From the NCBI GenBank assembly GCA_024763555.1, contig JANTFG010000001.1, forward strand, positions 1 to 55,271: DNA of 55,271 bases, written 5' to 3'. The translations under genes and the position numbers were made by a program. Numbering within the stretch: position 1 is the stretch's first letter; each line of letters begins with the position of its first letter. The DNA comes from Thermoanaerobaculales bacterium (GTDB taxonomy: Bacteria; Acidobacteriota; Thermoanaerobaculia; Thermoanaerobaculales; Sulfomarinibacteraceae). The notes beneath the pieces were generated by a model. That model saw nothing but the letters and a program-made list of their open reading frames with translations, was not told where the DNA came from and did not search any database. Below, piece by piece: positions 5,361 to 48,046 of this stretch.

Positions 5361-6032
5361 ATGAAGAACACGATCGTGATGCTGATCATGCCGGTCATTG
5401 CCGCCCTGACAGTCTCAGCCGGGGAACTTCCAATACCCCGCGCGGATCCAGAGCCCTTCTTCTCCGAATACGTCGAAGGGGCTGCCTCGAAGGCGCCAGG
5501 CGACCTCGCCCTCGAGATTTTCAACCCGACGAATTTCCCGATCGAACTGGGGAATATGAGCTATGTCATCGAAATCTACGCCGACGGAGCACTGACTCCG
5601 ACCGCCGTGATCTCCCTGGTCGGGACCATTCCTCCCCAGGGAACATATGTCGTTGTCGCCTCCGGCGCCGACCCGATCCTGCTGGCCCTTGCGGATCAGG
5701 TCGAGCCCCTTCTTGTCTTTGACGGGAACGACCTCATCGTCCTCCGGGGCCTCCTGCAGGCGAAAGCTCCGGCAGACCGCCAGCTGACCATCCTCGATGC
5801 CATCGGCCAACTCGGCAACGATCCAACGCCCCCCGGCTACTGGGGCGCCTGCCCCCTTTGTACGGCCGACGTCGACCTGAGACGCGACCCGACGGTCCTG
5901 TACGGCGATATCAGTCTCAGCGATGCCTACGACGTCGCAAGCGGCTGGCTGGCCAACCCACCCGACGACTGGACGGATTTGGGCAGCCACGTACCGGTTC
6001 CCGTCGAGTTGATGTCATTCAGTATCGAGTAG
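5361..6032 (+). CDS. Secreted lamin-tail-domain (LTD)-like protein
   Basis: ATG 5361 is preceded by GGGAGGGA, and the signal peptide is MKNTIVMLIMPVIAALTVSAGE. FFSEYVEGAASKAPGDLALEIFNPTNFPIELGNMSYVIEIYADG follows the LTD pattern seen at N-termini of ExeM/NucH-type extracellular nucleases. The longer listed ORF (from 5220) would overlap thrC. Confidence 0.7.
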   Translation: MKNTIVMLIMPVIAALTVSAGELPIPRADPEPFFSEYVEGAASKAPGDLALEIFNPTNFPIELGNMSYVIEIYADGALTPTAVISLVGTIPPQGTYVVVASGADPILLALADQVEPLLVFDGNDLIVLRGLLQAKAPADRQLTILDAIGQLGNDPTPPGYWGACPLCTADVDLRRDPTVLYGDISLSDAYDVASGWLANPPDDWTDLGSHVPVPVELMSFSIE

Positions 6033-22800: not shown

Positions 22801-23292
22801 ATGAAGAATCGGACTTTTTCAGCGTTGATCATGGGTCTGTGGATAACTCTTCTCTTGGTCTTGGCTGCGACCGGAACCGCAGCGGGGAGGGATTTGGGAC
22901 AGCACCTTCCGGGCTGGAAGATGGCGCGTTTTTTGCCCCTCCAAGGTCGAATGGTCCTTGAACATGACGGTGAAATGCTGGTGGTTCGGAGCGGGGAGGA
23001 GATCCCCGGCCTTCCCGGCGCCATGGTGAAGACGATCGGTTCAGGAGGTGCGTTGATTGAAATTGACCAGCCGCCCGAGGGGCTCGATGCCGACCAAGAA
23101 CAGTCAAGATATTGGTTGCTGGTGAAATCAACTCGGGATGGGAAGACCGAGGTCATCGTGATCCACGCGTTGCCCGAGGAAGGACTGCTCCCCGAACAGT
23201 CGGTAGAGACCCAGGAAATTCCGGTTTCGAAGACCTCTCCCAGCTCGGTTTTGAAATCTCAGCCTGAGAACAGAGAAGGGAACAAACAGTGA
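22801..23292 (+). CDS. Small (163 aa) secreted or membrane-anchored protein, first gene of the giant-protein operon
   Basis: The signal/anchor is MKNRTFSALIMGLWITLLLVLAATGTAAG. Its TGA (23290-23292) overlaps the GTG start of the giant gene. The middle segment (LVVRSGEEIPGLPGAMVKTIGSGGALIEID) weakly recalls PilP/GspC-type beta-domains, which is a low-confidence impression. Confidence 0.7.
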   Translation: MKNRTFSALIMGLWITLLLVLAATGTAAGRDLGQHLPGWKMARFLPLQGRMVLEHDGEMLVVRSGEEIPGLPGAMVKTIGSGGALIEIDQPPEGLDADQEQSRYWLLVKSTRDGKTEVIVIHALPEEGLLPEQSVETQEIPVSKTSPSSVLKSQPENREGNKQ

Positions 23293-35200: not shown

Positions 35201-38200
35201 CGGGGAAATCAGCCTGACGTGGGCCGCTCCGACGCCACCTCCCGACAACCCGGAAAGTTATCGTCTCTATCGGGCGACCGGGATCGGGGAGTTTTCACTC
35301 TTAGTCCAGGTTCCTGCGGATCGTCTTGAATGGCTGGACACCGGACTTGAGGAAGGTCTGACCTATCGGTACCGTGCCACGAGCCTCGCCTGGATTGATG
35401 GTGTACTCGTGGAAAGTGATGCTTCTGCCGAGGCATCCGCCGTTGTTGAATGCTCCACTGTGCCTCCACCGGTACTCTTGGTACCGACGGTAGCCGGTGA
35501 GCCGATTGACTGGCCTTCGGACTCAGCCGACATCGGTGGGCGGGCATGGCCCGGTTCGGATGTCACGCTTCTTCAGGACGGTTCCCCTGTCGCTTTTGTG
35601 TCGATTGATCAGAACCTTCCCGACGAAACTCATCCACTTCCGGGCTATGGGGATTCCGGTCCGATTCTGGCGCTCAGCCAGGACGGTCGGGTGGCCGCAT
35701 ATTCTGTGTATGACGGCGACAGCAAACTGATGATTCGGGATCTGGAGAGTGGGAAGACCACGACGATTGTCAGACCTGATCCGGGCTTCATCGATGTGGC
35801 TGCGGACGGTCATACTGTTGCTTTCATCGACCGTGTGTCCGGTCAAGAAGACGTCTTCGTTGCCGACGTGGCAACCGGTGAGGTCAGCCGTTTGACCGAC
35901 GACGGAGAGAGCAAAGAAGGCCTTGCCTACTCGCCCGATGGTGGTTGGGTCGCCTACATAGAGCGCGGTTCTCAGCGGCGTCTCCTACTCGTGGAGACGG
36001 CGACGGGTTCGGTCAGAGAAATCTACTCGACCAACTCTTGGAATGACCTTGGTTGGCCGGTCTTCAGCCCGGATGGGGATCTGTTGGCCGTCAAAGGTGA
36101 CTGGCAGATCATTGTCTTCGACCTTTCGACTGGCGAAAACCAATATATCTGGACCGATTGGAGTGCGGCCATGACCCGCCAACCGTTCTCCGCGGATGGT
36201 CGGTATCTCTGTTGGACGGAATATCCGAATTCTATCCCGGAGACGGCGATCATTAAGGTCTACGATCTGATCGAAGATGCTTCTATCGATATTCTCTCTG
36301 GCCAAGAGGGTGTGTTTGCCGGCGCTTTCGTCGATCAGAACACACTGGCATTTCTCAGGTTCCTGCCCACCAAAGCGGGCAGCATCAACGGTGGCGACGT
36401 CGAGGTAGTCTACTTGTCGTTGCTGGACGGTTCAGAAGATGTTTTGACCGCGAGGGTTGCTCTGGATGCCCTTGCCGGAACCGGATTAGACGGCGAATGG
36501 AGCCTGATCGCGACCGCCGATGGGTCGCTATGGATTCCGCAACAAGAAGAGACTCTCATGCTATTCCGGCCGACCGGGCTCTTCACCGTGGCGGAGGTTC
36601 CACTGCATCCGGGCGCCAACGAGTTCATCGCGCGCCAACTCTTCGACGGCATATCGATGGACTCCACGTCAATCGAAATCAACGTGGCGCCGGACCTCTT
36701 CGGTGACGCCGATGTTCTGGCCGTCGGGGCGACGCCGGCATTCCCCTTGACCGGGGACTCGGTTCTGATCGACGGCGTCGTTCAGAATGTCGGAAATGCT
36801 TCGATGAATCATCTCGTCGTGACCCTCAATCGAGTCGATAAGAACGGTCTCTCTCATTCGGTTGAAGTCGATATCGTGGATCTGGCGCCAGGCGCCTACC
36901 ATAGGGTTCGCTCAACCTGGGATACAACCGGGTTGACGGGCGACAATACCTGGATCCTGTCAGCCGATCCGATCGACGCCATTCCAGAACTCGACGAAGA
37001 GAACAACAGCGCTTCAGTCCTGGTTCCCCTCCGAGAGGATCTCGGACTCGAGGCGTCTATTTCGACGCCTCAGGCTGAATATCAGCTCGGCGGACTTGTT
37101 GGGTTCGAGATCACTGTTTCAGCCAACGGAGGGCCCCAAGAAACCCGGGTCGTGACTCAGGTGGAAACCGCGAACGGTGACTTGGTGGCAGTCCTCGATG
37201 ATCGGACCTTGAATGACTTTGGTCATTCGACCGAGACCTGGGGCCTCTCGTGGCCCTCGGACCAGGTCTATCCCGGTGATTACAGGGCGCGCGTGATCGT
37301 CACAGCCGCCGACGGCGACAACGCCGAAGCGGATGTGGACTTCTCGTTGTTCGTCCTTACCGAGGTTGAGGCCGCAGGCTCGGCCGATCGAGCCTCGTAT
37401 CACCGTGGCGATCGGGCAATATTCGAGGCTGAGGTGCGCAATACCGGCCAGGCATTGGTCTCAGGCGCCGTCGTTGAAATGGCTGTTGAGCCGCTTGGCG
37501 GGGGTAGCACGATCGCTGTCGAGACACGAGATCTCGTGACCCTGCCCGGGGGCGCCGATACGGTGTTGTCCTGGAGTTGGGACACTGTTGGAGCACCCTT
37601 GGGTGCACTTCAATTCGTGAATCGGGTCCTCGCCGAAGATGGAGACATCCTGGCCGTTTCGGCGCCCTATCCCTTCGTCATTGAGAGTGTTGGAGCGGCA
37701 TTGAGTGGTTCTGTCTTCGCAGATCCCGGCCGCTTAGAACCAGGTGAAACCATGTCGATCACCGGGGAGGTTGCCAACCTTGGGGATCAAGGTCTCTTCG
37801 CACTCGAAGTTGCGGCCGAGATTATTGATCTCGAAAATGGTCTTGTCATCGACCGGTTGACCGATATCGTCGACCTGGGAGTCGGTGGGACAGCGTCGTT
37901 GTCGTGGGCCTATACCCCGACGATGACGCGGCTGGATTCTTATGTCGTTCTCTTGTCGGCAAACCGGCAGGATGTCACGCCTCCAAGGATTGAGCCGCTG
38001 GCATCGGCGACCTTTACCCTTGTGGACCTGACGCCACCGGATCTTGTCTTGCTGGATCCGGATGCAGGGCCGGTCTGCGATATCGTCGATATTCGTGCCC
38101 GGGCGACGGATGCTTTGACCAGCGTCGTTCGAGTGACCTATCTCCTCGATGAGCGTACGCCCGCTGTGGCTCTGGATCTGGAGTCGCTGGAAGACACCGT

Positions 38201-40352
38201 CTTTGCTTCGAGGTGGTATGTGCAGCCGGGACAGACCGGGTTGCATACGATCTCGGTCTTTGCCGAGGACGAGGCAGGCAATGTTGCCGGCCCGGTCTCG
38301 GTCGAAGTCTCCGTCATCGACGACTTGACCCCACCTGAACTCAATATCGTTGGGCCGGTGGACGGCAGTTGCGTTCCCGGTCCGGCAACCGTGGTCTTCG
38401 ATGCAATCGACGACAATCTCGAGAGCGTCATGGCGACCCTGGATGGTGAAGCCTACAACTCGGGCGATCCTATTCCCGATGGTCCCCACATGGTTGTGGT
38501 GAGCGCTGTTGACGTCTGCGGGCACGAAGTACAGGATCTGCGGACCTTCCTCGTCGATTCACTGGCGCCGGAGATCGTGGTCACAGGTGTCGAAGATGGC
38601 GTGACCTATCTTCCGCCCCTGGACATTAACTGGAATATTACGGACACCAATCTGGAAATCTACTCGTCCACGTTGAATGGGACACCCGTGCTAAGTCCCC
38701 TGATTGTCGATCAGGAGGGGAGCTACGTCCTGGAGGTCAGCGCTACGGATTGCGCCGGCAATCAAAGCTCAGTGGTAATTGGATTCGGAATCGGGTCCGG
38801 CGCCGTCACCCTGGTATCCGACCTCGATGTCCAACCGTTTTCTGTCGAACCTCCCCTGGAGGTCGTCGCGGCAGGGACCGTTGCCAACGCGGGAGAGTCG
38901 GATCTGCAACAGGTGACGATCGGGCTTCGCCTGGTTGATCCCTCGACGGGAGAAACCGTGGACATCAGGACGCGGGAGGATGATATCGATGTCGGGGCTT
39001 CGGTAGAGGTCCGCGAGGCATTCGATACATCCGGTCTCAGCCGACAGCTCTATCGGATTCGGCTTGAGGCTTCCGGAACGTCCGGCGGTGGGGCCTTCAA
39101 TCAAGTTCTGGCGACCCGGGACTTCGAAGTGGTTGATTTGACGCCACCAGAGGTCACGGTGAATTCACCTGCAACGGGCCCGGCCTGCGATCCGGTTCCC
39201 GTCCGACTTGAGGTCCTGGACAGCTTCAGCGGCGTGGATTCCGTTTGGGCCAGAATCGACGGTAATCCCGATCTTCTCGAACTCGACTTCCTGCCGGGAG
39301 ATCCGGATCCCGGGAATCTCTGGGGGACGGACCTCGTCTTCGGACCAAATGCGGGAGGCATTCACCAGCTGGAGTTTCTTGCCGGTGATATTGCGACAAA
39401 TGTCTCGTCACCGATCGGAGTCGAGGTTGACGTCGATGTTGAACCACCGGTTCTGAATCTTGACGCTCCGGTCGACGGAGCATGTCTCAGAGATCCGGTA
39501 ACCATCACCTTCGATGCGGTTGATTCCAATCTGGCGCTGCTTGAGGCGGTACTCAACGGGAATGTGATGACCTCCGGGTTCGTTGTGAGCCAAGACGGTT
39601 CATACGAGCTCATTGTGACCGCTCAGGATGCCTGTGGCCTCGAAACTGCTTCCCAGACGACCTTCATCATCGACAGCGCGGCGCCGGTGATTACCGTTAC
39701 CGGGGTCGCCGATGGAGGCGTTTTCGACAGCGGCGTGATCGCCGACTGGTTTGCCGAGGACGCCAATCTGTCGGAGATGACCGCAACACTTGACGGGGCT
39801 CTGGTAACGCCGCCCTTGACCATCGACGAGGAAGGACAATATACCCTGGCCGTGTCGGCATCGGACTGTGCAGGGAATTCAGCCGACCAAACCCTGATCT
39901 TTGCCGTCGAGGGGCAGGCGCCTCTGGAGCTGTCCGGAAGTGTCACACTCGGGGCCGCCATCGTCGATCTTGGAGATACCTTGGAGATTTCAGCCGAGGT
40001 ATTCAACGACGGTGGCGCAGCGGTCAACGGCGTTTTGGCCCAGGTCAGGGTGGTCAAAATGTCGACCGGCCATCAGGTCGGCGGCGCGGAGGCTGGAATG
40101 GACCTTGGAGTTGGGATGAGCGACACACTGGTCGACTTCTTCGACACCGCCTCGCTTTCCGGTGGAATGTACCGAGTTGAACTGTGGGTTTCCGGCGACT
40201 ACGCCGGAGAACCCTATGAAGAGCTTCTGGATCAGAAGCAGTTTGAACTCCTGGCGCCGGCGCCGATCCCCGACCTCGGGACATTCGGACGCCTGCTCCT
40301 GTTGCTGCTGCTGATTGGGGCCGCCTCTGCCGTATTGCGGAGGGTCGCATGA
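23289..40352 (+). CDS. Giant (5,687 aa) secreted multidomain protein with an HExxH zincin head, many adhesion-type modules and a C-terminal sorting-signal-like tail
   Basis: The reading frame is uninterrupted for 17 kb. The start is GTG with signal peptide MRRVFLPLLVFALVVTPGSLAWA. NHEVGHQW lies at aa 172-179. Repeats QNPDGGWGW / DHRADGGFGE / QQPNGSWSS mark the alpha/alpha-toroid (prenyltransferase-like) region. CARDB-like units occur with EDNNEA / SNNRA motifs. FSPNGDAVKDTTTIFY / FSPNSDGILDTTEITF mark the four FlgD-Ig-like modules. FN3-like Y(N/R)(V/L)YRDG motifs occur about five times. SPDGGWVAYIE-type propeller blades (TolB-like) and a discoidin-like module are also present. The tail is PIPDLGTFGRLLLLLLLIGAASAVLRRVA. 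Confidence 0.9.
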   Translation: MRRVFLPLLVFALVVTPGSLAWAAGDSCVVSPEELARSYSNHPEKVTQSGLGSWIDGIYVLPYTYPGTYDKIVGGSLNSAPRRWVSQSFFEDSPDAYDFVVIVTNFEWDATAGVAGFHIGVANEVRGIGLEVFDQSQLWGSENLQGYIDIRWLSAYIREDGSLDSEFLNALLNHEVGHQWLARAQFLDGGTPSDALLGVDGVHWSYLLDSEASYMYGSEWTDNGDGIFTATKIRDRYSHLDLYLMGMLAPEEVPDFTLLVNPSIPSDGYPGLGDTIEATPRSISVFDVIGAEGPRIPDWRQAQHEFRVGMIYLVDPTIPVMSEDIERLNDIRASWEESFFRQTRGRGVVDVAEPSDMPVGGSSVDLTEAVNWLVSIGAGGVWRDSPTTWVRETAEAIAALDRIGGHGDIVINGLENLENETPVATELVARRLLALTRQTGADLSTPVETLAAKMKASGGWPAFPRYLPDFITTARAVRALDAAGAVDIASEGWSWLASLQNPDGGWGWQEGLGSTTLATEEVLLAAQRLFPDDYWNLPAVQTAVAWLLDHRADGGFGEPFPNTEATAQFLLLSEGQAINQVITQEAVDFLKVRQQPNGSWSSSAHSTALAINALASYALPDPFVDEARVFADPEQPFDDEEIELLVEIRNLGLPLEAGTPFQWEARLADNPQVLVWLESGELPAVDDIGFVTLGTTISPNLPEGVYEIRFVIDPNREVPQRERSNDVGTVRLEVRSHPDGVDLQLTDADLSLDPTDISSIPQPLTVNGMIHNLGLSDATAVVLRVFDGDPADGVVLGETTVAVPALGLSAFSVPAVVTEARSMTITIVADPDRLTDDSFRFNNTASRVLPLLHRIDLEVLPGSLNATPPTIVVGEDQMLEAVIRNAGTVAVSDFHVIFSYEWGTPAALFPIEDLIVTETLAPGETIMVSVDWSPNVGGDPLPIQVDVDPNGDTGDTDLSNNRARLNLTVPPSDLPNLVIGPESFILTPDPPLQGALCQIGVVIANPTINAAGPFEAQLWLDAVGTGILLGSESFAGIGAGSTVQMNLVWDVVEPEDRLLYAVVDVDGVVVEFREDDNEAFIEPDVQTLPDLVVTGGGISFLPSFPKVGDVVHFEVLLGNQGDQASSATLLQLVSTQDSVIDSTAVPAMEGHTEMTLGLDWETGTFMGDAALTVRVDSSETVIELFEDNNEAGVTVGVQDADIFLSNQIFSPNGDAVKDTTTIFYRAGGEVEIQTVEGRLVRNLVPENGEEYIVWDGLSNRGNPAPDGLYTVTAGETSSWVVVDTNHYAITNELEQRLLVGFLQPRVPGQDRPCSWNPDCNLERSWFTSMTGSPVSEEIYLVERYHAEGTAFDEDTYSLWMFAADQMVELGELPENLSLFGVDASGSRFVVSGGEPYRLLRVPEMTLEDITSQGGWGSSPWISPDGLWLLWVSRNDDTVYLDSLDNSGETYSFNPEGVDDGSICGYSVFWTPRGEAVVSLKTWNNSGYFYRISTTTEPPSASSIQAQGWNGSCGGGGIPSTIEDVQAGDPDLNAKSEVGGDGEILESGLDFDQDTLTWLTLEGGGYGGYGGYGEAGGYGGYGGSELSASIFALEDGAAGESGSSNLGWSEWSDVYYSLSNDGDMYTVSWSEGYKSEGSAQPAGGSDLSGGAYIWLDSAQETGRDPKAWSPVDQYLTNWRTEEVRGLPLRMDDTLWTPPDTYIVGNLNTAQQYYGDQLPYFTPAANLKMRVKPRVLFGDGGVDLWLLATDRYLESFLLEYSDLDVDPDVYFPIGLPSNEALYNERWGTWLPPGNGRYRVRLTGTDRAGNQRSDSRRVTWNGDNDIANLYTESRYLSPRSSIGIKDTLIFHYTVLRPANLVFFIVDSDGETVKEINVAADEIGQKTTTWDGTDSFGNPVTDGEYLLAYGEASWPVIVDNAAPSATLRIEATGYARETREVVDEYGQPILDADGNPTCVSSSKDEYLNEVFGAVDDSNLMDWEYQVLVDEAEDLWQTLALGTEPVGAGSEVLRGRYAADWFVNRRIRYIAHDLAGNETITEASYRNEMLVFTDSEPSCRRALHPCLYPDRPELENLMDGGGLFESAAPLILNPFYDTLLVQDSVWTESLDLRLEYREASLAGVPAGPWIEGTIDVAPDPVGRGFETLGWPFDLECPDTERVPNAGLTVLYWDHPTLPQMPVEVRLSATNDDGQEIVSPTRLFYPEMPLTLQHIDVDSRGDILLLTNVSDGVVRNPVLQIRRIELTSNGIIIRWETLMSIVDRLGPGEIAEFSTGCLLVEESEEILRAAGTGGFGGEALSTLAQVPFREGYSTLGSAFGFVSGSCPSGSGSGSGLFDNSCGDGPWVQGWVNNGTSAVAQGHVALDPVGVSFLSYELLVDGQPFLSVPGPLQSADFTDELDLSRLSEGQHAVTERYTYPGEAGLLGQCERSFPLTIDRLPPVLGITEPYDGALICPDDATMAVTLADQDATPGRLQKVFLDGGLRKSSGVGCPGFNGGDGATYTIDGLYQLQPGWHEIGAQSIDRAGFASCATPINVYVPDLPHIVATQLPWFGYPRHKSVFSPLNTMDRALVETIDFTTNTPGTWSVSIERAGVVYQSTSGELSAPDELVEIIWDGTDPSGALAENGFYFAHITARSPCGAEDTARVNFELDATPPTLVVNEPLSGLEAGAVVEVIGEVWDSQGNFQHAAVEIMYLDGGLGEWEVVDGLDREIKGEPGVIGTWSPRTREAGNYLLRVRAWDLPGNVTISPSIDILVPEVDPLIEFVDREPGLFSPNSDGILDTTEITFGLFQEAVVTLQIVDPDAGVVRTLIDQQTLPVDTLLSTQVWSGEGDSGVTVPDGQYHVVVSAGDPAIPPVIPPEQERLTVVVDTIPPVIELTSPAEGALVPLPLELIGSQVEIHPELWTLTLTGPEVDGLVIATGSGAYDSRILTIIEDGDVVDGDYVLVFDAIDAAGNQASLVRRFTIDNTLPVAEILLPEVGTVVNTLNEPLSLHGEVFDEHLRDWTWAYAPGLTPDFSDFDFFRSGTPTEVGGAVDLFAWDASNLPDGDYTLRFSGTDVLNQEGEARSPFIVDNTPPEVAITQPAPGAVIADPLEILGSVADERLKNWTLSLIPGQDIPMQVGSAPANGVLTEWILLPPDGAYTLLLEAEDMAGNRSEVSVDVQIQVMPPSPPVIVSADVTDRTDVALAWVPGPGPEPEAYNVYRDGVLITPVAIDETNWLDASLGTGTYVYTVRALSQAGVETEDSNPAEVEIDLRPPLANIVLPVDGARVADLVSIFGTASRDTAFGGWRLWATFMPSGAPVLLGGGSAPVVTDLLTVWDTSQPAWVEGPYELRLEAWDIFGNTAVDVINVEVDNTPPTVPVLTVAFSQALDPDMTVDDIHVEWTLTPTPPDLAGFYLYRNGQLANAPGPVLGSPAPFLITETNYDDRDLPDGTYIYFVTAADTAENESGASNESDPIVIDTRRPHAVITDPADGSEFEHSTPVTAECEDLDVESVVFEYMPEGGSVWTPIGSPLTSPSPWTIDFEPGASGLYHIRAVASDALGADPAPESVALTETDLPPERPEDLSLAIDGGDIHLEWSPVADPFGDLAGYRVYRDGTLLTPTLLPTDQLEFDDPGLTDAYYNYRVAAVDDADHEGPQASVGGWVRTPQFDWVFPVTPANTMVLEARSDTYFNQVEFERLADVGDWEQMASLPFDGPLVAYPSASPAYGFNIYRMRGSDQDGNRSHWSTPLIIVRHDPPIEPTNVGATAAGNDVQVDWDASVDPDLSGYLVGRDGALISDSPTAFPYNAGTQQLIASGGALADWEMVVDGNDATAWYPDAETAGAGPSWQWTWNDSVALETVRVAWMGGAYARRFSVEVEIDGHWLWWYYAENNWSTETLVDLGIEATGVRLSVPPGTYCSSCALAEITLAGVDHLQTNQYTDPDLPGQAYEYGVRNLNRWGQESPEASVSVQIGGTALAPPENLQASPASCGEISLTWAAPTPPPDNPESYRLYRATGIGEFSLLVQVPADRLEWLDTGLEEGLTYRYRATSLAWIDGVLVESDASAEASAVVECSTVPPPVLLVPTVAGEPIDWPSDSADIGGRAWPGSDVTLLQDGSPVAFVSIDQNLPDETHPLPGYGDSGPILALSQDGRVAAYSVYDGDSKLMIRDLESGKTTTIVRPDPGFIDVAADGHTVAFIDRVSGQEDVFVADVATGEVSRLTDDGESKEGLAYSPDGGWVAYIERGSQRRLLLVETATGSVREIYSTNSWNDLGWPVFSPDGDLLAVKGDWQIIVFDLSTGENQYIWTDWSAAMTRQPFSADGRYLCWTEYPNSIPETAIIKVYDLIEDASIDILSGQEGVFAGAFVDQNTLAFLRFLPTKAGSINGGDVEVVYLSLLDGSEDVLTARVALDALAGTGLDGEWSLIATADGSLWIPQQEETLMLFRPTGLFTVAEVPLHPGANEFIARQLFDGISMDSTSIEINVAPDLFGDADVLAVGATPAFPLTGDSVLIDGVVQNVGNASMNHLVVTLNRVDKNGLSHSVEVDIVDLAPGAYHRVRSTWDTTGLTGDNTWILSADPIDAIPELDEENNSASVLVPLREDLGLEASISTPQAEYQLGGLVGFEITVSANGGPQETRVVTQVETANGDLVAVLDDRTLNDFGHSTETWGLSWPSDQVYPGDYRARVIVTAADGDNAEADVDFSLFVLTEVEAAGSADRASYHRGDRAIFEAEVRNTGQALVSGAVVEMAVEPLGGGSTIAVETRDLVTLPGGADTVLSWSWDTVGAPLGALQFVNRVLAEDGDILAVSAPYPFVIESVGAALSGSVFADPGRLEPGETMSITGEVANLGDQGLFALEVAAEIIDLENGLVIDRLTDIVDLGVGGTASLSWAYTPTMTRLDSYVVLLSANRQDVTPPRIEPLASATFTLVDLTPPDLVLLDPDAGPVCDIVDIRARATDALTSVVRVTYLLDERTPAVALDLESLEDTVFASRWYVQPGQTGLHTISVFAEDEAGNVAGPVSVEVSVIDDLTPPELNIVGPVDGSCVPGPATVVFDAIDDNLESVMATLDGEAYNSGDPIPDGPHMVVVSAVDVCGHEVQDLRTFLVDSLAPEIVVTGVEDGVTYLPPLDINWNITDTNLEIYSSTLNGTPVLSPLIVDQEGSYVLEVSATDCAGNQSSVVIGFGIGSGAVTLVSDLDVQPFSVEPPLEVVAAGTVANAGESDLQQVTIGLRLVDPSTGETVDIRTREDDIDVGASVEVREAFDTSGLSRQLYRIRLEASGTSGGGAFNQVLATRDFEVVDLTPPEVTVNSPATGPACDPVPVRLEVLDSFSGVDSVWARIDGNPDLLELDFLPGDPDPGNLWGTDLVFGPNAGGIHQLEFLAGDIATNVSSPIGVEVDVDVEPPVLNLDAPVDGACLRDPVTITFDAVDSNLALLEAVLNGNVMTSGFVVSQDGSYELIVTAQDACGLETASQTTFIIDSAAPVITVTGVADGGVFDSGVIADWFAEDANLSEMTATLDGALVTPPLTIDEEGQYTLAVSASDCAGNSADQTLIFAVEGQAPLELSGSVTLGAAIVDLGDTLEISAEVFNDGGAAVNGVLAQVRVVKMSTGHQVGGAEAGMDLGVGMSDTLVDFFDTASLSGGMYRVELWVSGDYAGEPYEELLDQKQFELLAPAPIPDLGTFGRLLLLLLLIGAASAVLRRVA
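23808..23822 (+). other. HExxH zinc-binding motif (HEVGH, aa 174-178) of the giant protein
   Basis: The codons cat gag gtc ggc cat are in frame. The context is LLNHEVGHQWLARAQ..DGVHWSYLLDSEASYMYGSEW..SHLDLYLMGML. Confidence 0.7.
38022..40250 (+). repeat. Tandem duplication of an about 370-aa super-module ([3 Ig-like units + 1 CARDB-like unit] x2) at the C-terminal end of the giant protein
   Basis: Copy 1 starts VDLTPPDLVLLDPDAGPVCD (38022) and copy 2 starts VDLTPPEVTVNSPATGPACD (39132). They are collinear throughout. Matching pairs include DDLTPPELNIVGPVDGSCV / VEPPVLNLDAPVDGACL, DSLAPEIVVTGVEDG / DSAAPVITVTGVADG and SATDCAGNQSS / SASDCAGNSAD. Confidence 0.85.
40254..40349 (+). other. C-terminal sorting-signal-like tail (IPTL-CTERM-like: motif + hydrophobic helix + basic end)
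   Basis: APAPIPDLGTFGRLLLLLLLIGAASAVLRRVA is compared with the I-P-T-L-x-x-W-G / hydrophobic / Arg-rich layout of IPTL-CTERM (recalled from TIGRFAMs descriptions). Confidence 0.5.
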
Positions 40353-43300
40353 AACGGCTTTGGAGAGAGACTATGAATCGACGCTTCGGTTTTGCTATTG
40401 CGGGGACACTCGTATTCTTGTTCCTGATCATTCCCGGAATTGGTATCGCAGATGACATCGGCGCTTGCGTAGAGCACTTTCCGTTGTTGCAGAGGTCCCT
40501 GACCTCAAAGGGACAGGGTCTGAACATTGACTCCGAAGACTTGCTTCGAGAGCTCAAGATCGAGCGGGCCCTGTGGCTCGATGAAGTCGAACACCAGCGA
40601 AAGGTCCTCAATGCAGCCGGAGCCCCGCAGGATCGTCTTCTCGCTGCCGACAGTGTCATGAGGCGTCGTTTTGGCGAGATTGCGGCACTGATCCACGATG
40701 GATCACCCCTTTCGGTTGAGGCTCAAGAAGCCCTTCAATCATGTGGCGAAGCCCGGCGATCCTTTCCTTCGGGTCCCCTTTCGACGGCTTCGGTTCTGCC
40801 TGAGTTTCGACACAGGACGCCGGCTCTGCCCGACCCCTTATTTCCCGAGGCTTATCGGGATACGCCCTCGGAGTCGATGCGGGAGGCGGTTAAGAAAACC
40901 CGATCTCATGAGAAGTCCGGATTCGAACCCGAAGGTCCCGATCTGATTGCGGCCAAGGCATCCGAGTTGGGCGACGACCCGATGGCATTGTATGCCTTTG
41001 TGTTGAATGAGATCAGGCCCACCCTTTCGGTCGGGGCCATGAGGGATGAGGTTTCTGTTCTTCGAACCGGCGAGGGCAACGATGCCGAACAGGCCGGGCT
41101 CTTAGCGGCGCTTTTTCGCGAAACCGGATATCCGGCCCGGTTGGCCTGGGGCATTCAGGAAATCGGTGTCGAAAAGCTACTGGACCACTTTGGCGCCGGA
41201 GATTTCCGTGCGCTCGAAAGAACCCTTACAGCGGCCGGTATTGCGTGGGAACCCGTACTTGTCGGCGGTTCTCCCGCCGCCTACCGGCTGGAGCGGGTCT
41301 GGTGTGAAGTTTGGCTTCCCTTTGGAAATTTCAGAGGTGTGGTTCTCGATGCGACAGGCGCTACGTGGGTGACCCTGGATCCGTATCTGAAGAACTTCGA
41401 GGAGCAAGAAACCCCTGCGGTTTTGGACAACATGAACTTCGACGAGGGACCCTGGATCGATGCCTATCTGGCCGGCGCCGATTGCACGGCCCCTCTTTCC
41501 GAGGCCGGCGCTTGCCCGGCCCCCAGGGATTTGCTCATTGACGAGGTTGCTGCCTTTTTGGAGGGTTCTGTAACCACAGTTGAAGAGGCGGTGACGCCGC
41601 CACCAATTCGAAGCCACTCCGAGCCGATCTTGCCGACGGCAATGGGCGGCAAGATCGTCGCCGTCTCCGGCGTTGATGTTGAACTTCCCGAGGCATTGCG
41701 GCACCGAATCCGTATGGTGGCCAAAGACGGTGTGCTGACACTTTTTGACGGCGAGTTTTCGGCAAGTGACCTCGTTGGCAAGGAGGCCGTCATCTGGTTC
41801 GTTCCAGCGACCTTTGACGACGAAGCAATCCTGGCAGCCTACGGTGGCGAACTGTGGCGTGTGCCGCCCTATCTGATCAACCTCACCCCTGAGTTGCGCA
41901 TCGACGGCGAGGCAGTGCAGCGTGGCGTGGAAGGCATCGGGATGGGCCGTGCTTTCGAGTGGGAATTCGTGTTGAGTGCTCCTGGTGGGAATTCAACCGG
42001 CTTCGTCAACACCGCGTTGGCCGGGGTTCCGACCGGATTTGGTCTGGCGCCCGGCTTCTCGGGCTACGAGCCGGTCTTCGGCGAGCCGAGTAATACGCTC
42101 GAAGTTCTGGCATCCCTTGCCGGGTCATGGCTTGATGGTGTTGGCACATTCGAAAAGGAGATGGCCGCATTGGCCGGCGGGGCTGTCATACACCCCTTCC
42201 CCAACATGGTATCGGTCGCCAGTGTGATGCGGGTCGAGAGTTCCCTCGGCCTGATTGAAGGGCTGGAATGGTTGGGCGTCTCGGTTGATGCCGACGTGCA
42301 TGCCTCCCGTCTTGTCGGGGAGGCTGAGGCGCAGCGTCAGTGGTTGGAAATGGTCGAACTTGATGCTTCTGCCAGGGAACGCCTGTTGTTTGAGACGGGG
42401 TACGCAACTCCCTCGATCAGTGCCGACAAGGCTCTGATGCTCGGGGCGACGACTGGTGTGACTATTCATCACATCGATACGGCTAATCTTGGGGCTATCT
42501 TGCCGACCTTGCCGTTTGACGCCGACGTTCTTGATGAGATCGAAGGCTGGGTGCTCGCCGGGGGCGAAGCATGGGTGCCTGCTGAAGAAATCCAGACGCT
42601 GGAATGGACCGGAGTGGGTTATCGATTGTGGGACCCCGATACCGGCGAAAATCGTTACCAGTTGGCGGGCCGTCTTTCAGGCGGCATGACCGCGGCGCCG
42701 CCGTTCGAGGTGGTCGAAGGCCTGAGGGATCCTCTGCAATATCCCTCACCCGAGTACGTCAACTCGGACCCGACGGCTGCGGTCTATATTGAGATCTTCG
42801 ACGGCAACCTCCAGATCGGTACGGCCGGCGACGAACTGTCACTGCAAAATAACGCCATCCCACTGAGGGCCCGGGTCTTCGACGTCAGCGGGCGACCGGT
42901 CAAGGATGCGCCGGTTGAGTTTCAGGTTCTGGGGGGTGGAGGCGGCTTCGGCGGGCCGGGAATCGGCACGATCTCGGCGACCAGCAATGCCGTTGGTATT
43001 GCCGAGACCGTTCTGACCCTTGGGGAGCACACCTCAGACAATCCCTACTATCTATTGTTTCCCGATGATGAACATTCGACCCGATGCGGCTTGACGGTCG
43101 TGACGGCAAGCGTCAACGGGTTTGGAATGCCTGACGTCTTCTGGGAGATGGCGGAACCCGGAGACCTCGATCAGCTGCTGACCCCCCGGGGGACCTCGGT
43201 CGAGGCACTTCCACACTTGAGTGCCGGCAGCCTCGTAGCCGTGCCCGCCGATCAATACGAGAACCCGATCTCCAATGTGGAGGTCACCTACGTGCTCAAC

Positions 43301-46300
43301 GGGAGCACCTCGTCCGAGCCCGATGAAGGGCCCGAACTGCTCAGTCGCGATGAAAAGGAGCAGTGCCGTCCCGGGCTGGTCATGGCCGGAGAATGTCCCG
43401 GGGGCAGTGGATCGAAGACCGATACTGGCGGTGTGACCGGAACGTGGGTCTATTTGATCATCGGTGACGAAGACATTACCGTAACGGCGACAGGAACTGA
43501 TGATTCGGGATCGGCCGATGTGACGTTCTCCGGGCATTCCAGGACCCAGAGCGTTCCTGGCGATTGGGCCGTTGGATGGCCGGTCATTCTGGTCAGCAAA
43601 AGGGGACAACCGGTCAATCAGGACGGTGAGATCCTTGAGGCCTATCCGCCGGGAGAACAGTCTCTGGCGCTCCAGGTCTCGTTGTTCATCGTGCGTGAGG
43701 ATTTCTCTGTCCATGAGTGTGACAACGACAACAGGTATTGCACCGTTCCTCTTGGGACCTATCGGACGAAACGCCTTGGGCAAGACGAAGCTTCCGGCTG
43801 TCAGCCTGAGAGTTGCGGGGGGGGAACGCTGAATGAACGGGGACAGGTTCATTTTTCGGGCGCCGGGGCCGACGCGACGATCAGCACCCAGGACGCTGAC
43901 GGCAACTACACCCATCAGGTCACCATGCCAACTTCTCCTGGGCGTTATGAAATCACAGCCTCCCCGACAGTCTGGATCGCCGTTCCGAAGATTCCTGACG
44001 ACCCGGACTACGTGAATGAAGTCGTACCGTGTCCCTCAGGAGATGATCCGTGTGGCGCCAGGATGGAGCTTGACGAAGTCTCCGACGCGAACTGGGAGAC
44101 CAATTTTGTGCTCTGGTCCGTTCAGGCCCAGGTGACCGAACCGCCCCCAATCGTCAAGTTGGGTCACAAGAACCGGCACGAAGAGGTTACCGAGTTTCCT
44201 TTCACCATTGAGCCCTCAAACTATCCGGCAATGAATACAGTCGTGTACTTTTTGGAAGACGGCCAGATTCGTCTGACAGCCTTGGCCGAGGGTCAACAGG
44301 CGGCAGATCCCAAAGCGCTCGTCCCACCAGGTGAGATCTTCGCTCACCCGGAAGGTGACCACAAGGTAGGAATCTACCTCAACTATGGCTGGGTCTGGCA
44401 GCCCTATCCCGGTGAGCCGGTGTCCATGGTGATGGAGGGTGAGCAGGTTGATTTCAGGGTTGTGATGAGTGACCTTGACGTTGACTCGAACAACAACGAC
44501 GGGATTGGTGAACTTGAGCGGGACGACCTGGAAGATTCCCTGGAAGCAGGCGGTGGAGATTCTCGCGCTGCGGAAGTTGATGCCCAGGTGCCTCGGGGCA
44601 AGATCGTCTTCGTCAATCACAATGACGATGATAATGATGGCGTACCGGACTTTGCTGATCTTGAGATGAATGGGGGACACCAGGAGCGGAGCATGGTTCC
44701 AATCGTTATTGAAGTACGACCAGAGGGTGGCGACTATGAGGACGTATGGATCACCTTCCATTACGATGGCCAGACCGAGGGTCAGATCGATGCTCTCGAG
44801 GCGGCCTATAACGTGAATTTCCCGGACCCAGAAATGAAAATTGGTGGTCTGAAAAAGCTGCAAGACCCAGAAACCTGGGGCTACCCAGATGGAGATGGGG
44901 AGGGCTATCAATACAAGAATTTCTCCCAATACAAAACCGGCCAGTTTCGGATCTGGAACGTCGAGGATCCCTCGGATCCTCGAGGAAGCTATGAGTTGGT
45001 TGAATCGGGTGATGAATATCCGGTGACTTGGTTGGGTTTTGACAGTGATCATCAAGAGAAGACCTTCTGGGTCGAGGCGATCAACGGAATTCGTGTCGGC
45101 GATCCCTGGGAACCGGCGGAAATCCGTGTTGAAGTCTCTCTTGAATCCGGTGACGTTGCGCAGGCAGTTGAGGATACGATCGTGCTCTATCCGGTTGAGG
45201 GCAACCTCGGGGTCAATAACGGCAATAACAAAAATAACGATACTATTTTGCGTCCCGGTGTCCCGGATGAGACATTCACCATCGATGAATATGACGAAAT
45301 GGTGGAGGATCAGGGTGATGGATTCAGGTTCTGGCGATCAGAGAGAAGTTACTTTTCGGTTGAAAACATTGAAGATTTGGCGCCACTGATTCTCGAAGTC
45401 CACCAGGAGCTGCTGGATGCCGGTTTTGAGTTGGCATTGTCCCTTGATATTGATGGGGGCGGTGATGATTCGGAGAGCTTGAGGCTGGGTCGGATGCCGG
45501 AGGGAACCACTCGCCTCAGTCATCTCAGGCTGATAGGTACGGCTAATAAGTTGGTCTACGGGGACAATGAAGAATTGCCGTGGAGTGAGGTCGTCAAGAC
45601 GGGCGATCCTCCGAATCGTCTGCCGGAGCTATCCAAAGCCAAGAGCGAGCTAGTGTTCTCTGTGAAACCAGGCGATGGCGGGATTGTAAGGGCTACGATT
45701 CGAATGTTCGCTGCGCGGAAGGAGCATTGGTACCAAAGTTTCACAGATGATAGAGATTGGCAGGCTGTTGATTCGGTTCGGTTGACCATAGCGCCAATCG
45801 AGAGTTTTTTCTCAGCCTATACTGTCCGCAAGTTTGATTCTGAAAACAAAGAAGAATTCACCGAACCCGACAACGTATTCGAGTACCCCACCGAGGTCGT
45901 CGATGATGATCCCAAGACCATCTTTGGAATGCGCTTCCCTTTGGCACGCCATGTCGATGATTCATTCGGAAACGGTATCCCCAAAACCGGAACCCCCAAC
46001 CCCGATATCAAGCCTTCTCTGGTGTGGCTACACGGTTACAATGTCTCTTTTGATGCCGCCATCGACTGGGCACGGGTCGCCTACAAGAGACTCTACTGGG
46101 TGGGTTATCGCGGAAACCTCATCCTGTTCACCTGGAGGGGTAACCCACAGGGGGCAACTGGTTTCGCCCACTTCGGATTGGCAAACCAGTGGGGCCTCCA
46201 AACATCCGAAAGCCTACGGATTTTCTTGCGGGATGAGATGAATGTTCCTCCCGAGAAGATCCACGTTTTGGGTCACAGTCTGGGGAATCTGGTTGTTTAT

Positions 46301-47047
46301 GATGCGATGCGTTTGGACAGGGCAAAGGGGAACTCAGGGAAGCTCTTCCACAATTTCATTTCGACCGAGGCAGCGATCTGGGGAGAGACCTTGTGGCCCC
46401 AAGCGCCGGTCGAGTATTGTCCTGATGGCGGCGGGCTCTTCTGCAACCCGATCACTTACAGCATTCGGGAACTCCAGTGCTCGTCATGGACATTCTGGTT
46501 CAACCAACAGGGCCGTGAGGCGTGGAAAGCAGTCGATAGGATCTATCACTCCTACAGTCCTGACGACAATGTATTGACCCTCATTATGAGGGAAAGTGAT
46601 CGTTTTCTTCGACAAGCTCCGGCCCAGAACCCTCACTACTACCGACCGGAATGCTCTGATGATGACGATTTTAGAGTTCCCTGGACGCCGAGGCACGCAA
46701 ACGGAGACATCGATATGAGTTTGCACCTCAATCCCCAGCTTTGTTTTGGAGACAGTTTTCATCCGGGTTGCCCGGCGCTGCTGGATCCTGACGACAGGAG
46801 ATTTCTACCTTATACCCATCTGGCCCTCGAATTGCCGGCTGGTGCGGCATCCAATCCGATGGTTGGAACTTCTCACGGGAATTTGACGTTGAACGATGTC
46901 AATGCCCGGGACCTCGGTTGGAACGATTCATTTTCGCCGACGGGAGGCCATAGCAACCTCAAGGGGGAGACTTTCCCCGATATTTTCCACTGGTGGGAAG
47001 CACTGGTATCGGACAATGGCGCCTTGCCCAAGGGAAGGGAATTCTAG
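40349..47047 (+). CDS. Giant (2,232 aa) secreted or anchored protein with a degenerate transglutaminase-like core, Big_1-like Ig modules, acidic Ca-binding-like loops and a C-terminal alpha/beta-hydrolase
   Basis: The ATG overlaps the stop of the 5,687-aa gene (ATGA), with GGAGG 5 nt upstream. The N-terminal hydrophobic segment is FGFAIAGTLVFLFLIIPGIGIA. The domain evidence is given in the sub-features and findings. Confidence 0.9.
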   Translation: MKRLWRETMNRRFGFAIAGTLVFLFLIIPGIGIADDIGACVEHFPLLQRSLTSKGQGLNIDSEDLLRELKIERALWLDEVEHQRKVLNAAGAPQDRLLAADSVMRRRFGEIAALIHDGSPLSVEAQEALQSCGEARRSFPSGPLSTASVLPEFRHRTPALPDPLFPEAYRDTPSESMREAVKKTRSHEKSGFEPEGPDLIAAKASELGDDPMALYAFVLNEIRPTLSVGAMRDEVSVLRTGEGNDAEQAGLLAALFRETGYPARLAWGIQEIGVEKLLDHFGAGDFRALERTLTAAGIAWEPVLVGGSPAAYRLERVWCEVWLPFGNFRGVVLDATGATWVTLDPYLKNFEEQETPAVLDNMNFDEGPWIDAYLAGADCTAPLSEAGACPAPRDLLIDEVAAFLEGSVTTVEEAVTPPPIRSHSEPILPTAMGGKIVAVSGVDVELPEALRHRIRMVAKDGVLTLFDGEFSASDLVGKEAVIWFVPATFDDEAILAAYGGELWRVPPYLINLTPELRIDGEAVQRGVEGIGMGRAFEWEFVLSAPGGNSTGFVNTALAGVPTGFGLAPGFSGYEPVFGEPSNTLEVLASLAGSWLDGVGTFEKEMAALAGGAVIHPFPNMVSVASVMRVESSLGLIEGLEWLGVSVDADVHASRLVGEAEAQRQWLEMVELDASARERLLFETGYATPSISADKALMLGATTGVTIHHIDTANLGAILPTLPFDADVLDEIEGWVLAGGEAWVPAEEIQTLEWTGVGYRLWDPDTGENRYQLAGRLSGGMTAAPPFEVVEGLRDPLQYPSPEYVNSDPTAAVYIEIFDGNLQIGTAGDELSLQNNAIPLRARVFDVSGRPVKDAPVEFQVLGGGGGFGGPGIGTISATSNAVGIAETVLTLGEHTSDNPYYLLFPDDEHSTRCGLTVVTASVNGFGMPDVFWEMAEPGDLDQLLTPRGTSVEALPHLSAGSLVAVPADQYENPISNVEVTYVLNGSTSSEPDEGPELLSRDEKEQCRPGLVMAGECPGGSGSKTDTGGVTGTWVYLIIGDEDITVTATGTDDSGSADVTFSGHSRTQSVPGDWAVGWPVILVSKRGQPVNQDGEILEAYPPGEQSLALQVSLFIVREDFSVHECDNDNRYCTVPLGTYRTKRLGQDEASGCQPESCGGGTLNERGQVHFSGAGADATISTQDADGNYTHQVTMPTSPGRYEITASPTVWIAVPKIPDDPDYVNEVVPCPSGDDPCGARMELDEVSDANWETNFVLWSVQAQVTEPPPIVKLGHKNRHEEVTEFPFTIEPSNYPAMNTVVYFLEDGQIRLTALAEGQQAADPKALVPPGEIFAHPEGDHKVGIYLNYGWVWQPYPGEPVSMVMEGEQVDFRVVMSDLDVDSNNNDGIGELERDDLEDSLEAGGGDSRAAEVDAQVPRGKIVFVNHNDDDNDGVPDFADLEMNGGHQERSMVPIVIEVRPEGGDYEDVWITFHYDGQTEGQIDALEAAYNVNFPDPEMKIGGLKKLQDPETWGYPDGDGEGYQYKNFSQYKTGQFRIWNVEDPSDPRGSYELVESGDEYPVTWLGFDSDHQEKTFWVEAINGIRVGDPWEPAEIRVEVSLESGDVAQAVEDTIVLYPVEGNLGVNNGNNKNNDTILRPGVPDETFTIDEYDEMVEDQGDGFRFWRSERSYFSVENIEDLAPLILEVHQELLDAGFELALSLDIDGGGDDSESLRLGRMPEGTTRLSHLRLIGTANKLVYGDNEELPWSEVVKTGDPPNRLPELSKAKSELVFSVKPGDGGIVRATIRMFAARKEHWYQSFTDDRDWQAVDSVRLTIAPIESFFSAYTVRKFDSENKEEFTEPDNVFEYPTEVVDDDPKTIFGMRFPLARHVDDSFGNGIPKTGTPNPDIKPSLVWLHGYNVSFDAAIDWARVAYKRLYWVGYRGNLILFTWRGNPQGATGFAHFGLANQWGLQTSESLRIFLRDEMNVPPEKIHVLGHSLGNLVVYDAMRLDRAKGNSGKLFHNFISTEAAIWGETLWPQAPVEYCPDGGGLFCNPITYSIRELQCSSWTFWFNQQGREAWKAVDRIYHSYSPDDNVLTLIMRESDRFLRQAPAQNPHYYRPECSDDDDFRVPWTPRHANGDIDMSLHLNPQLCFGDSFHPGCPALLDPDDRRFLPYTHLALELPAGAASNPMVGTSHGNLTLNDVNARDLGWNDSFSPTGGHSNLKGETFPDIFHWWEALVSDNGALPKGREF
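41000..41370 (+). other. Transglutaminase-like core with the catalytic Cys and His positions substituted
   Basis: GEGNDAEQAGLLAALFRETGYPARLAWG aligns to the G-x-C-x-x-F-A-x-L-x-x-A-L-x-R-x-x-G-I-P-A-R motif with Asp245 (gat 41081-41083) at the Cys position. ERVWCEVWLP aligns to H-A-W-x-E-V with Arg316 (cgg 41294-41296) at the His position. The Asp of the triad is retained (VVLDATG, gat 41348-41350). Confidence 0.55.
46016..46560 (+). other. C-terminal alpha/beta-hydrolase (DUF900-like esterase/lipase) domain with a GxSxG nucleophile elbow
   Basis: SLVWLHGYNVSFDAAIDWARVAYKRLYWVGYRGNLILFTWRGN is followed by IHVLGHSLGNLVVYDAM. GHSLG is at 46271-46285 and the Ser1977 codon agt at 46277-46279. 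Candidate acid and base residues lie in YSPDDNVL and SPTGGHSN. Confidence 0.6.
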
Positions 47048-48046
47048 ATGTCTGGATTTCGGAGTTGTTCATTCAATACGGGAGTGGGTTGTTTTTTTGT
47101 CGGTCTGAGCCTCCTTGTTTTGACTGGCGTTTGCCCAGCGGATGGCCTTTCTTCCTTTCGAACCGTTCCCATCAGTGTCTCCGGAACGGTCATCGATGCC
47201 CAGGGCCGCCCTGTTCGGGAAGTCCAGATGACGATTCTGGAGGGGCGGCCTCAGGGCAATTCGTTTGAGATCTCCTGGAGTCGTCGACACCGAACCATTG
47301 ACGGTGGGTTCGAGGTTCGATGTGAGGATTGCGCCGACCTTCGTCTTCGGTTTCAAGCCGAGGGATTCTATCCGAAGGAAATCGGTTTCAAGCTGACCGA
47401 TGCCGAGGCCAAGAGGTTGTTAACGGGCCAAGACGGCGATGGTTTTTCCTTGGTTCGCCAGGGACTGATCGTTGAGCTTGAGCCCAGTGTCAATCCCGTG
47501 AACCTCGACTGGACTTCGGTGGTCCTTGACGTGCTGGAAGATGGGCCGATGAGGGTTCTGGCCGCAGAGAAGGGGCGGGTGAGAGGGACGATCGAACGGA
47601 CGGTTTTCTCAAAAAGGCAGAAGGCCGGCGGGGGGGGCGGAGGCCCGGCGATGGTGGCTCTCAAGGCCGCCCCAGGGCAGTTCGAAGCTCTCGTGCGAAA
47701 GACGACCGGTTATGAGGCCGAGGCGGCACCGAACGCCGTCTTTCTTGAGTTTTCCGGGGGAATGACCGGCGTTATCCCCATTGATTCTCCCGAAGGAAAC
47801 TACAAGACCGTGTATCGGAGCATGATCGAGGCGCCGGAAGAGGGTTATGTCGATCACCTGGTGATCGACCCTAATAGTGATCGGAGGCAGTATTTCTACT
47901 GCCGGATTGGAGATCTCTTCGGGAAAGGAAGCGTATCCTCTTTGAGGGCCGCTTACGGGCGTGATTCCATTCGAATCCTCGAAGTAGGCATCGAGGTCTA
48001 CCTCAATCGAGACGGCAGCAGGAACCTGGATTCACTCGAATACTGA
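47048..48046 (+). CDS. Secreted 332-aa protein with an N-terminal CarboxypepD_reg-like domain, last gene of the operon
   Basis: The ATG immediately follows the TAG of the upstream gene (47045-47050). The hydrophobic N-terminus is GVGCFFVGLSLLVLTGVCPA. ISVSGTVIDAQGRPVREVQMTILEG..FEVRCEDCADLRLRFQAEGFYPKE is beta-sandwich-like. A Gly6 tract is present. Confidence 0.75.
   Translation: MSGFRSCSFNTGVGCFFVGLSLLVLTGVCPADGLSSFRTVPISVSGTVIDAQGRPVREVQMTILEGRPQGNSFEISWSRRHRTIDGGFEVRCEDCADLRLRFQAEGFYPKEIGFKLTDAEAKRLLTGQDGDGFSLVRQGLIVELEPSVNPVNLDWTSVVLDVLEDGPMRVLAAEKGRVRGTIERTVFSKRQKAGGGGGGPAMVALKAAPGQFEALVRKTTGYEAEAAPNAVFLEFSGGMTGVIPIDSPEGNYKTVYRSMIEAPEEGYVDHLVIDPNSDRRQYFYCRIGDLFGKGSVSSLRAAYGRDSIRILEVGIEVYLNRDGSRNLDSLEY

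Follow-up and report, generated by a model that had tools for sequence, protein, structure and literature searches.

Which function, if any, can be served by a transglutaminase-like domain in which the nucleophilic Cys is replaced by Asp and the catalytic His by Arg? This question is raised by P0001, a 2232 amino acid (aa) long protein encoded in a 55,271-nucleotide (nt) stretch of contig JANTFG010000001.1 (assembly GCA_024763555.1) from Thermoanaerobaculales bacterium, which is referred to here as the window. A reading of the window made from its letters alone (the sequence-only reading) had proposed that the protein begins with a non-catalytic transglutaminase module and ends in an active-looking hydrolase, and the bases it flagged are part of a single long open reading frame (ORF) on the forward strand (40349-47047). 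Sequence comparison and structural modelling support such a module and make it probable that the Cys-less transglutaminase fold is the non-catalytic binding head of a Sec-exported polymorphic toxin.

The transglutaminase fold and its triad columns

Two Pfam matches in P0001 exceed the curated cut-offs: Transglut_core (PF01841) at aa 209-345 (30.6 bits versus 23, with E 4.3e-7 and a match over positions 16-108 of the 108 in the profile) and, near the C-terminus, DUF900 (PF05990) at aa 1891-1988 (24.4 bits versus 20.5). No RHS match was found in P0001 by Pfam, and no NCBIfam model matched the protein. Searching the PDB by phmmer with the single sequence of aa 181-400 gave no match and a family profile was needed. 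The profile used for this purpose, and also for hhalign, was built from 34 family members. Its match to PDB entry 3isr_A (E 1.2e-4) pairs G-N-D-v-D-Q-A with G-V-C-R-D-F-A, and in TgpA (6g49) the same residues fall on G-F-C-A-H-Y-A. When compared with three Cys-bearing paralogues of the same genome by hhalign, the profile aligned GNDAEQ on GSCSEY with a probability of 97.1% (E 6.5e-11), and a MAFFT alignment of the family with these paralogues again brought Asp245 onto the catalytic Cys column. Asp245 is thus placed in this column by three independent profile comparisons, as had been proposed from the peptide GEGNDAEQAGLLAALFRETGYPARLAWG (aa 241-268), which is present in the ORF together with the second quoted peptide, ERVWCEVWLP (aa 315-324).

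The assignment of Arg316 to the His position is likewise borne out, because in the PDB profile comparison and the MAFFT alignment this residue lies two positions before the conserved Trp318, where the paralogues and TgpA carry His (F-H-R-W, H-A-W). For the third triad residue, the sequence-only reading was right in stating that an Asp is retained, but it named the wrong one. The segment T-W-V-T-L-D-P aligns against G-W-I-P-V-D and G-W-V-P-T-D-P, which makes Asp344, just beyond the flagged range, the residue in the Asp column; this agrees with the Pfam match, which runs to the profile's final position at aa 345. Asp334 (LDAT; codon GAT, 41348-41350) was rejected, as MAFFT locates it in a 12-residue insert that has no canonical counterpart. 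Since Asp344 is still present, the conclusion on retention stands. Cys319 was considered as a cryptic nucleophile and also rejected: it lies three residues past the His column, in a column occupied by Val in 120 and by Cys in 20 of the 157 representatives described in the next section. The Cys-His-Asp triad of an active transglutaminase or cysteine protease is therefore absent from P0001, in which the three columns read Asp245, Arg316 and Asp344.

For aa 186-365, AlphaFold2 gave a model with a mean predicted local distance difference test (pLDDT) score of 84.5, in which most of the core exceeds 90. A long helix starts exactly at model residue 60, which is Asp245, strand 123-139 contains Arg316, and Asp344 is found where strand 153-158 ends; in the model, this is the topology expected for a papain/transglutaminase triad. 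The best Foldseek matches of the core model in the PDB are exclusively transglutaminase-fold proteins, led by 3ISR (probability 1.00, TM-score 0.44) and including 3KD4, PeiP, TG2, CPR-C4, red sea bream transglutaminase, Rad4, LapG, factor XIII and PNGase. As the Foldseek E-values are modest (~0.02), the fold assignment depends on the sequence profiles and the structure combined. Pfam, hhalign and Foldseek all give a transglutaminase fold, and none points to the different fold that the sequence-only reading had considered as a possible refutation. By profile and model, aa 209-345 is predicted to be a transglutaminase (papain-like) fold domain that is incapable of thiol chemistry, and we infer that the domain in P0001 has lost its activity.

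Conservation of the domain and its leader across the family

When aa 161-420 were used as query in an exhaustive search, 1852 cluster representatives were retrieved at E<=1e-3, including 929 at E<=1e-10; a separate word-indexed homologue search limited to aa 200-360 returned only 6 proteins. The triad columns were counted in the best 157 of the 1852 representatives. The Cys column is never occupied by Cys and contains Asp in 137 sequences, Ala in 12, Ser in 3, Gly in 2 and Asn in one. The other two columns vary. His is found in 85 sequences (54%), Arg in 49 (31%) and Gln in 13 (8%) at the position of Arg316, and the position of Asp344 is filled by Asp in 98 (62%), by Ala in 32 (20%) and by Met in 11 (7%). 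When the three columns are combined, D-R-D, the state of the clade of P0001, is found in 44 sequences, D-H-D in 37, D-H-A in 17 and A-H-D in 11, and no triad is conserved anywhere among the 157 representatives. These counts argue for the proposed non-catalytic character of the module. They also mark the absence of Cys as the ancestral condition of a family of at least 1852 cluster representatives and not as the decay of one protein.

Despite the variable triad columns, many surrounding positions are near-invariant: G243, N244, D/E247, Q248, A249, R257, R264, G268, W318, P324, N327, R329, G330, D334, W340 and L343. Among these, N244, D/E247, Q248, R257, R329 and G330 are kept in at least 90% of the members, with N244, D/E247 and Q248 reaching 90-99%, and the Cys column is embedded in a GND-x-D-Q family motif. 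The 12-residue insert, FGNFRGVVLDAT, contains the nearly invariant residues Asn327, Arg329, Gly330 and Asp334, and the loop has pLDDT values of 53-59 in both AlphaFold2 models. The N-x-R-G...D loop may thus be a flexible functional loop. Between P0001 and its orthologue P0002, the transglutaminase domain is 80% identical and the whole protein 73%, which, together with the near-invariant residues, indicates that the domain is under constraint.

Named genome records containing the domain include members of Acidobacteriota (Thermoanaerobaculia, Holophagales and others), Lysobacterales (Dokdonella, Tahibacter, Xanthomonas sp.), Burkholderiales (Massilia, Duganella, Pseudoduganella, Undibacterium, Paucibacter), Thiohalomonadaceae, an Olavius symbiont, Deltaproteobacteria and Nitrospirae, and several copies per genome are present in 'Candidatus Multivoradales'. 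P0005, which is 44% identical to P0001 over aa 150-650, is annotated as Candidatus Sulfomarinibacteraceae, within Thermoanaerobaculia. The 3.9-Mb assembly that contains the window is 78% complete and encodes one copy of the family and three canonical Cys-bearing transglutaminase-like genes. The latter (C77:12533-12841, C41:6636-6902 and C93:1971-2273) have kept the catalytic Cys in the sequences GSCSEY, GRCSGV and GDCKDT, respectively, and served as internal controls.

Conservation extends beyond the core, as 125 of the 157 representatives cover aa 186-800. An AlphaFold2 model of this leader, based on a 52-row alignment, reached a pLDDT of 90.8 and a predicted template modelling score of 0.90, and shows beta-sandwich and helical domains arranged behind the transglutaminase core. 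The ~435 residues past the core (aa 366-800; 41444-42748) are conserved in the family and modelled at a pLDDT above 90, with D491, D647, S674, E677, S691, W753, G755, G774 and G779 being invariant; Pfam, NCBIfam and PDB sequence searches gave no match for them. Foldseek with the 615-residue leader retrieved animal transglutaminases and protein 4.2 at low TM-scores (~0.15), dominated by the core, and provided no identity for aa 365-800. Judged from the model, these matches reflect the core and a similar order of beta-domains and not a rigid match.

Toxin architecture, related systems and neighbouring genes

When its translation is judged by eye, the N-terminus of P0001, MKRLWRETMNRRFG-FAIAGTLVFLFLIIPGIGI-ADD, resembles a Sec signal peptide or a transmembrane helix. 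It is followed by a ~170-aa helical linker, itself kept in close relatives, and by the transglutaminase core, which begins at aa 209. At the other end of the protein, the hydrolase noted by the sequence-only reading is confirmed by the DUF900 match and by a weak similarity to the pancreatic lipase-related PDB entry 2ppl_A (E 0.006), in an alignment that spans the GHSLG nucleophile elbow. This lipase-like hydrolase is the presumed toxic tip. In BLASTP comparisons, P0002, P0003, P0013 and P0021 are similar to P0001 along their entire length, and the N-terminus is shared up to aa ~1383 with P0004, whose C-terminus is unrelated, and up to aa ~981 with P0005, P0006, P0018 and P0022, which continue with DUF6531 and RHS. 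Relatives that share the leader carry DUF6531, RHS and Big_1 domains according to Pfam. Of the 82 representatives that reach 1500 aa or more, RHS is present in 53, a hydrolase of the P0001 type in 11 and another C-terminus in 18. The same leader and the same hydrolase are combined even in P0009, which is only 26% identical; as this hydrolase ends 11 of the 82 long representatives, including distant P0009, the RHS-less combination of transglutaminase fold and lipase appears to be old and recurrent. By these sequence comparisons, a constant head is joined to a swappable tip, which is the pattern of polymorphic toxins.

Inactive transglutaminase domains of polymorphic toxins were described by Zhang, de Souza, Anantharaman, Iyer and Aravind (2012, Biol Direct 7:18, PMC3482391, Fig. 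5D). Their class description refers to N-terminal transglutaminase domains that have lost at least one of the C/H/D residues and sometimes stand beside bacterial immunoglobulin (Ig) domains. The domain is placed 'immediately' after the signal peptide and is followed by an RHS array, Ig domains being occasional (PMC3482391). In the table of export routes, 'Inactive transglutaminase' is listed in the Sec/type II secretion system class, and a non-catalytic anchoring role was predicted for these heads (PMC3482391). P0001 resembles this class in its N-terminal transglutaminase fold past a putative signal peptide or transmembrane helix, in the loss of triad residues, in an adjoining weak Ig-like match and in the variable C-terminal toxins attached to a constant N-terminus, with DUF6531 and RHS in close relatives. 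The domain of P0001 fits the inactive-transglutaminase class as these passages of PMC3482391 describe it. The same passages do not state the GND-x-D-Q motif, the family-wide Asp in the Cys column, the extension of the leader by ~450 aa, the RHS-less hydrolase architecture or the conserved operon with a 5687-aa partner and a 332-aa protein. A literature search gave no later paper that probes the function of inactive-transglutaminase toxin heads, and recent papers on 'inactive transglutaminase' (RloB, HM2192) concern a different family with seven transmembrane helices.

The best matches of the domain are transglutaminase-like cysteine proteases (3ISR from Cytophaga hutchinsonii, TgpA 6G49, LapG and CPR-C4), which share the fold and the G-x-[C]-x-D-x-A...R..G.PAR helix motif. 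These proteins keep Cys-His-Asp, whereas P0001 has Asp-Arg-Asp, a helical insertion at aa 270-305 and the 12-residue loop. Erythrocyte protein 4.2, Rad4/XPC, yeast Cyk3 and RloB have lost the nucleophile but kept the transglutaminase fold for binding, and protein 4.2 and Rad4 are among the Foldseek matches. Cyk3 and RloB are described as functional without an active site, the latter being an inactive transglutaminase with seven transmembrane helices from Pseudomonas aeruginosa. In contrast to P0001, these proteins belong to unrelated lineages and act in cytoskeleton, DNA repair, cytokinesis and inner membrane contexts, and none of them serves as the leader of a toxin; in protein 4.2, the Cys position is occupied by Ala and not by Asp. 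With Tox-ABhydrolase proteins and Tle-type lipase effectors belonging to type VI secretion systems (T6SS), P0001 shares a C-terminal lipase-like cargo and a secreted or periplasmic possible immunity protein encoded just downstream. Unlike Tle-type effectors, it starts with a putative Sec signal and a transglutaminase leader and not with PAAR or VgrG. No match to TssC (PF05943) was found in its own 78%-complete assembly, which is consistent with a T6SS-independent route for the toxin.

Table 1. Positions of P0001, its parts and its neighbours in the window
Feature	Position	Strand	Remarks
ORF P0001, 2232 aa	40349..47047	+	signal peptide, helical linker, transglutaminase-fold leader, Ig-like/beta-rich middle, lipase-like C-terminus
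Signal-peptide-like segment, aa 1-35	40349..40453	+	judged by eye from translation
Transglutaminase-fold core, aa 209-345	40973..41383	+	Pfam PF01841 30.6 bits, hhalign 97.1%, Foldseek
Asp245 (GAT), catalytic Cys column, N-terminus of long helix	41081..41083	+	alignments, model, DNA codon
Arg316 (CGG), catalytic His column	41294..41296	+	alignments, DNA codon
Asp344 (GAT), catalytic Asp column (WxxLDP)	41378..41380	+	alignments, DNA codon
12-residue insert, aa 325-336	41321..41356	+	without counterpart in canonical transglutaminase cores
Conserved ~600-aa leader module, aa 186-800	40904..42748	+	core, beta-sandwich and helical domains
Weak Big_1 (bacterial Ig-like) match, aa 835-890	42851..43018	+	below Pfam cut-off
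C-terminal alpha/beta-hydrolase (DUF900 / pancreatic-lipase-like, GHSLG elbow), presumed effector tip	45866..47044	+	Pfam PF05990, PDB 2ppl_A
163-aa ORF with signal peptide	22801..23292	+	4-nt overlap with start of giant gene
5687-aa secreted giant rich in CARDB/Ig/PD40, C-terminal sorting-signal-like tail	23289..40352	+	stop overlaps toxin start by 4 nt; conserved neighbour
332-aa protein with signal peptide	47048..48046	+	starts 1 nt past toxin stop

Four same-strand genes between 22801 and 48046 overlap or abut each other (Table 1). The tail of the giant protein encoded upstream of P0001 consists of IPDLGTFG, a hydrophobic helix and RRVA, and the 332-aa protein encoded downstream has a weak CarboxypepD_reg match and matched no immunity family. 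The order of a giant gene (~5670 aa, CARDB/Ig/PD40), a toxin gene and a gene for a secreted protein of ~340 aa recurs in two other metagenomic loci (L086 and L087), those of P0002 and P0003. In the P0003 locus, the toxin is 38% identical to P0001 and the downstream protein 31% identical to its counterpart (E 3e-35). In RHS-type loci, the upstream genes encode Ig-rich or pAdhesive_15/Calx-beta surface proteins. A pAdhesive_15 gene ('putative ice-binding-like adhesive') lies directly upstream of RHS-type members in L045:1372-2232 and L006:41-2341, in one case fused to Calx-beta repeats. By a crude script that gives a lower bound, at least 20 of the 61 related loci have their 2.2-kb upstream flank taken up entirely by an ORF on the same strand. 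P0013 (5139 aa) and P0021 (7614 aa) were considered as fusions of giant and toxin and rejected, because their junction regions (aa ~2900-3060 and aa ~5380-5560, respectively) retain the hydrophobic tail of the giant and the signal peptide of the toxin. Judged from these sequences, both probably represent neighbouring genes in the same frame or genes that were merged when called.

Role of the leader and alternative explanations

We propose that the family comprises Sec-exported polymorphic toxins in which the ~600-residue leader is constant and the C-terminal cargo is exchanged. The cargo would be a lipase-like alpha/beta-hydrolase in P0001 and an RHS cage with a toxin tip in most relatives. 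The former active-site cleft, with its near-invariant G-N-D-x-D-Q, R257, N327-x-R329-G330 and D334, has probably become a non-catalytic binding site, in which a salt bridge between Asp245 and Arg316 may structurally stand in for the Cys-His ion pair. After Sec export, this putative site would tether the toxin to the cell envelope, in line with the anchoring role proposed for the class in PMC3482391, or to its giant partner. Toxicity would then be provided by the hydrolase tip, with the secreted protein encoded downstream as a possible immunity factor.

Several observations weigh against this proposal. In comparison to the class described in PMC3482391, P0001 is devoid of an RHS array, has only a sub-threshold Big_1 match and ends in a lipase-like DUF900 hydrolase, and its core lies ~170 residues past the signal peptide and not 'immediately' behind it. 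The 332-aa downstream protein is a candidate immunity or accessory protein, for which the immunity role is a guess. Finally, the strong conservation of Asp245, Asn244, Asp247 and Gln248 would be compatible with an unrecognised catalytic site, too.

Such a site would employ non-thiol chemistry, an alternative also raised by the sequence-only reading, with Asp245 as nucleophile or general base and His/Arg316 together with Asp344 or Asp334 as partners. The activity of the enzyme might be directed at the toxin itself, by autoproteolysis, or at a substrate in the envelope, which would be cleaved or cross-linked. The presence of Asp245 in 137 of 157 representatives, the 90-99% conservation of N244, D/E247 and Q248, and the near-invariance of R329, G330 and D334 exceed what a mere scaffold needs, and Asp-His-Asp is kept in 37 of the 157. 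On the other hand, a fixed catalytic set is missing because the His and Asp columns vary, the nucleophile column contains Ala in 12 members, P0001 itself has Arg at the base position, and the literature search gave no transglutaminase-fold enzyme with an Asp nucleophile. We likewise know of none, and consider an active non-thiol enzyme quite unlikely. It is far less probable still that the domain is a recent and functionless remnant decaying in P0001. Two of its three triad residues are indeed replaced, but the same replacement is family-wide and spans several phyla, the domain is better conserved between P0001 and P0002 than the rest of the protein, and AlphaFold2 predicts a well-packed fold in which most of the core has a pLDDT above 90.

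The leader could alternatively serve as a docking or export adaptor in a two-partner device with the upstream giant, a segment of which would be recognised by the cleft, and not as a surface anchor. This is suggested by the 4-nt overlap of the giant and toxin genes and by the giant preceding the toxin in the P0002 and P0003 loci, and the calling of P0013 and P0021 as single giant-plus-toxin products points in the same direction. Large same-strand ORFs in the upstream flank of at least 20 of 61 loci, adhesin-like genes in others and the lack of a TssC match in the 78%-complete genome are also in favour of such a device. As P0013 and P0021 are probably adjacent genes, with tail and signal peptide at the junction, and as the adjacency of giant and toxin is not universal, this explanation appears unlikely to us. 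A non-catalytic binding head remains the preferred role for the leader. A further reading, which we put forward only tentatively and regard as rather improbable, is that the Cys-less cleft and the N-x-R-G...D loop form a specific recognition site or a non-thiol catalytic site that couples the toxin to the giant. The four-gene unit would then be a Sec-dependent device for toxin deployment in bacteria without a T6SS.

Beyond the function of the single protein, an apparent one-off pseudoenzyme turns out to be a member of a large family, with 1852 cluster representatives in Acidobacteriota, Gamma- and Betaproteobacteria, Nitrospirae and others. For annotation, this means that the Pfam label 'transglutaminase' on proteins of this family should not be taken as enzyme activity. 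The exact columns, the conserved loop and the modelled leader provide a basis for probing the retention and deployment of RHS and lipase toxins exported by Sec, and the domain occurs in bacteria that can be cultivated, such as Dokdonella, Pseudoduganella, Undibacterium and Tahibacter. In this respect, a more promising lead than the pseudoenzyme domain alone is offered by the conserved leader together with its partner genes.

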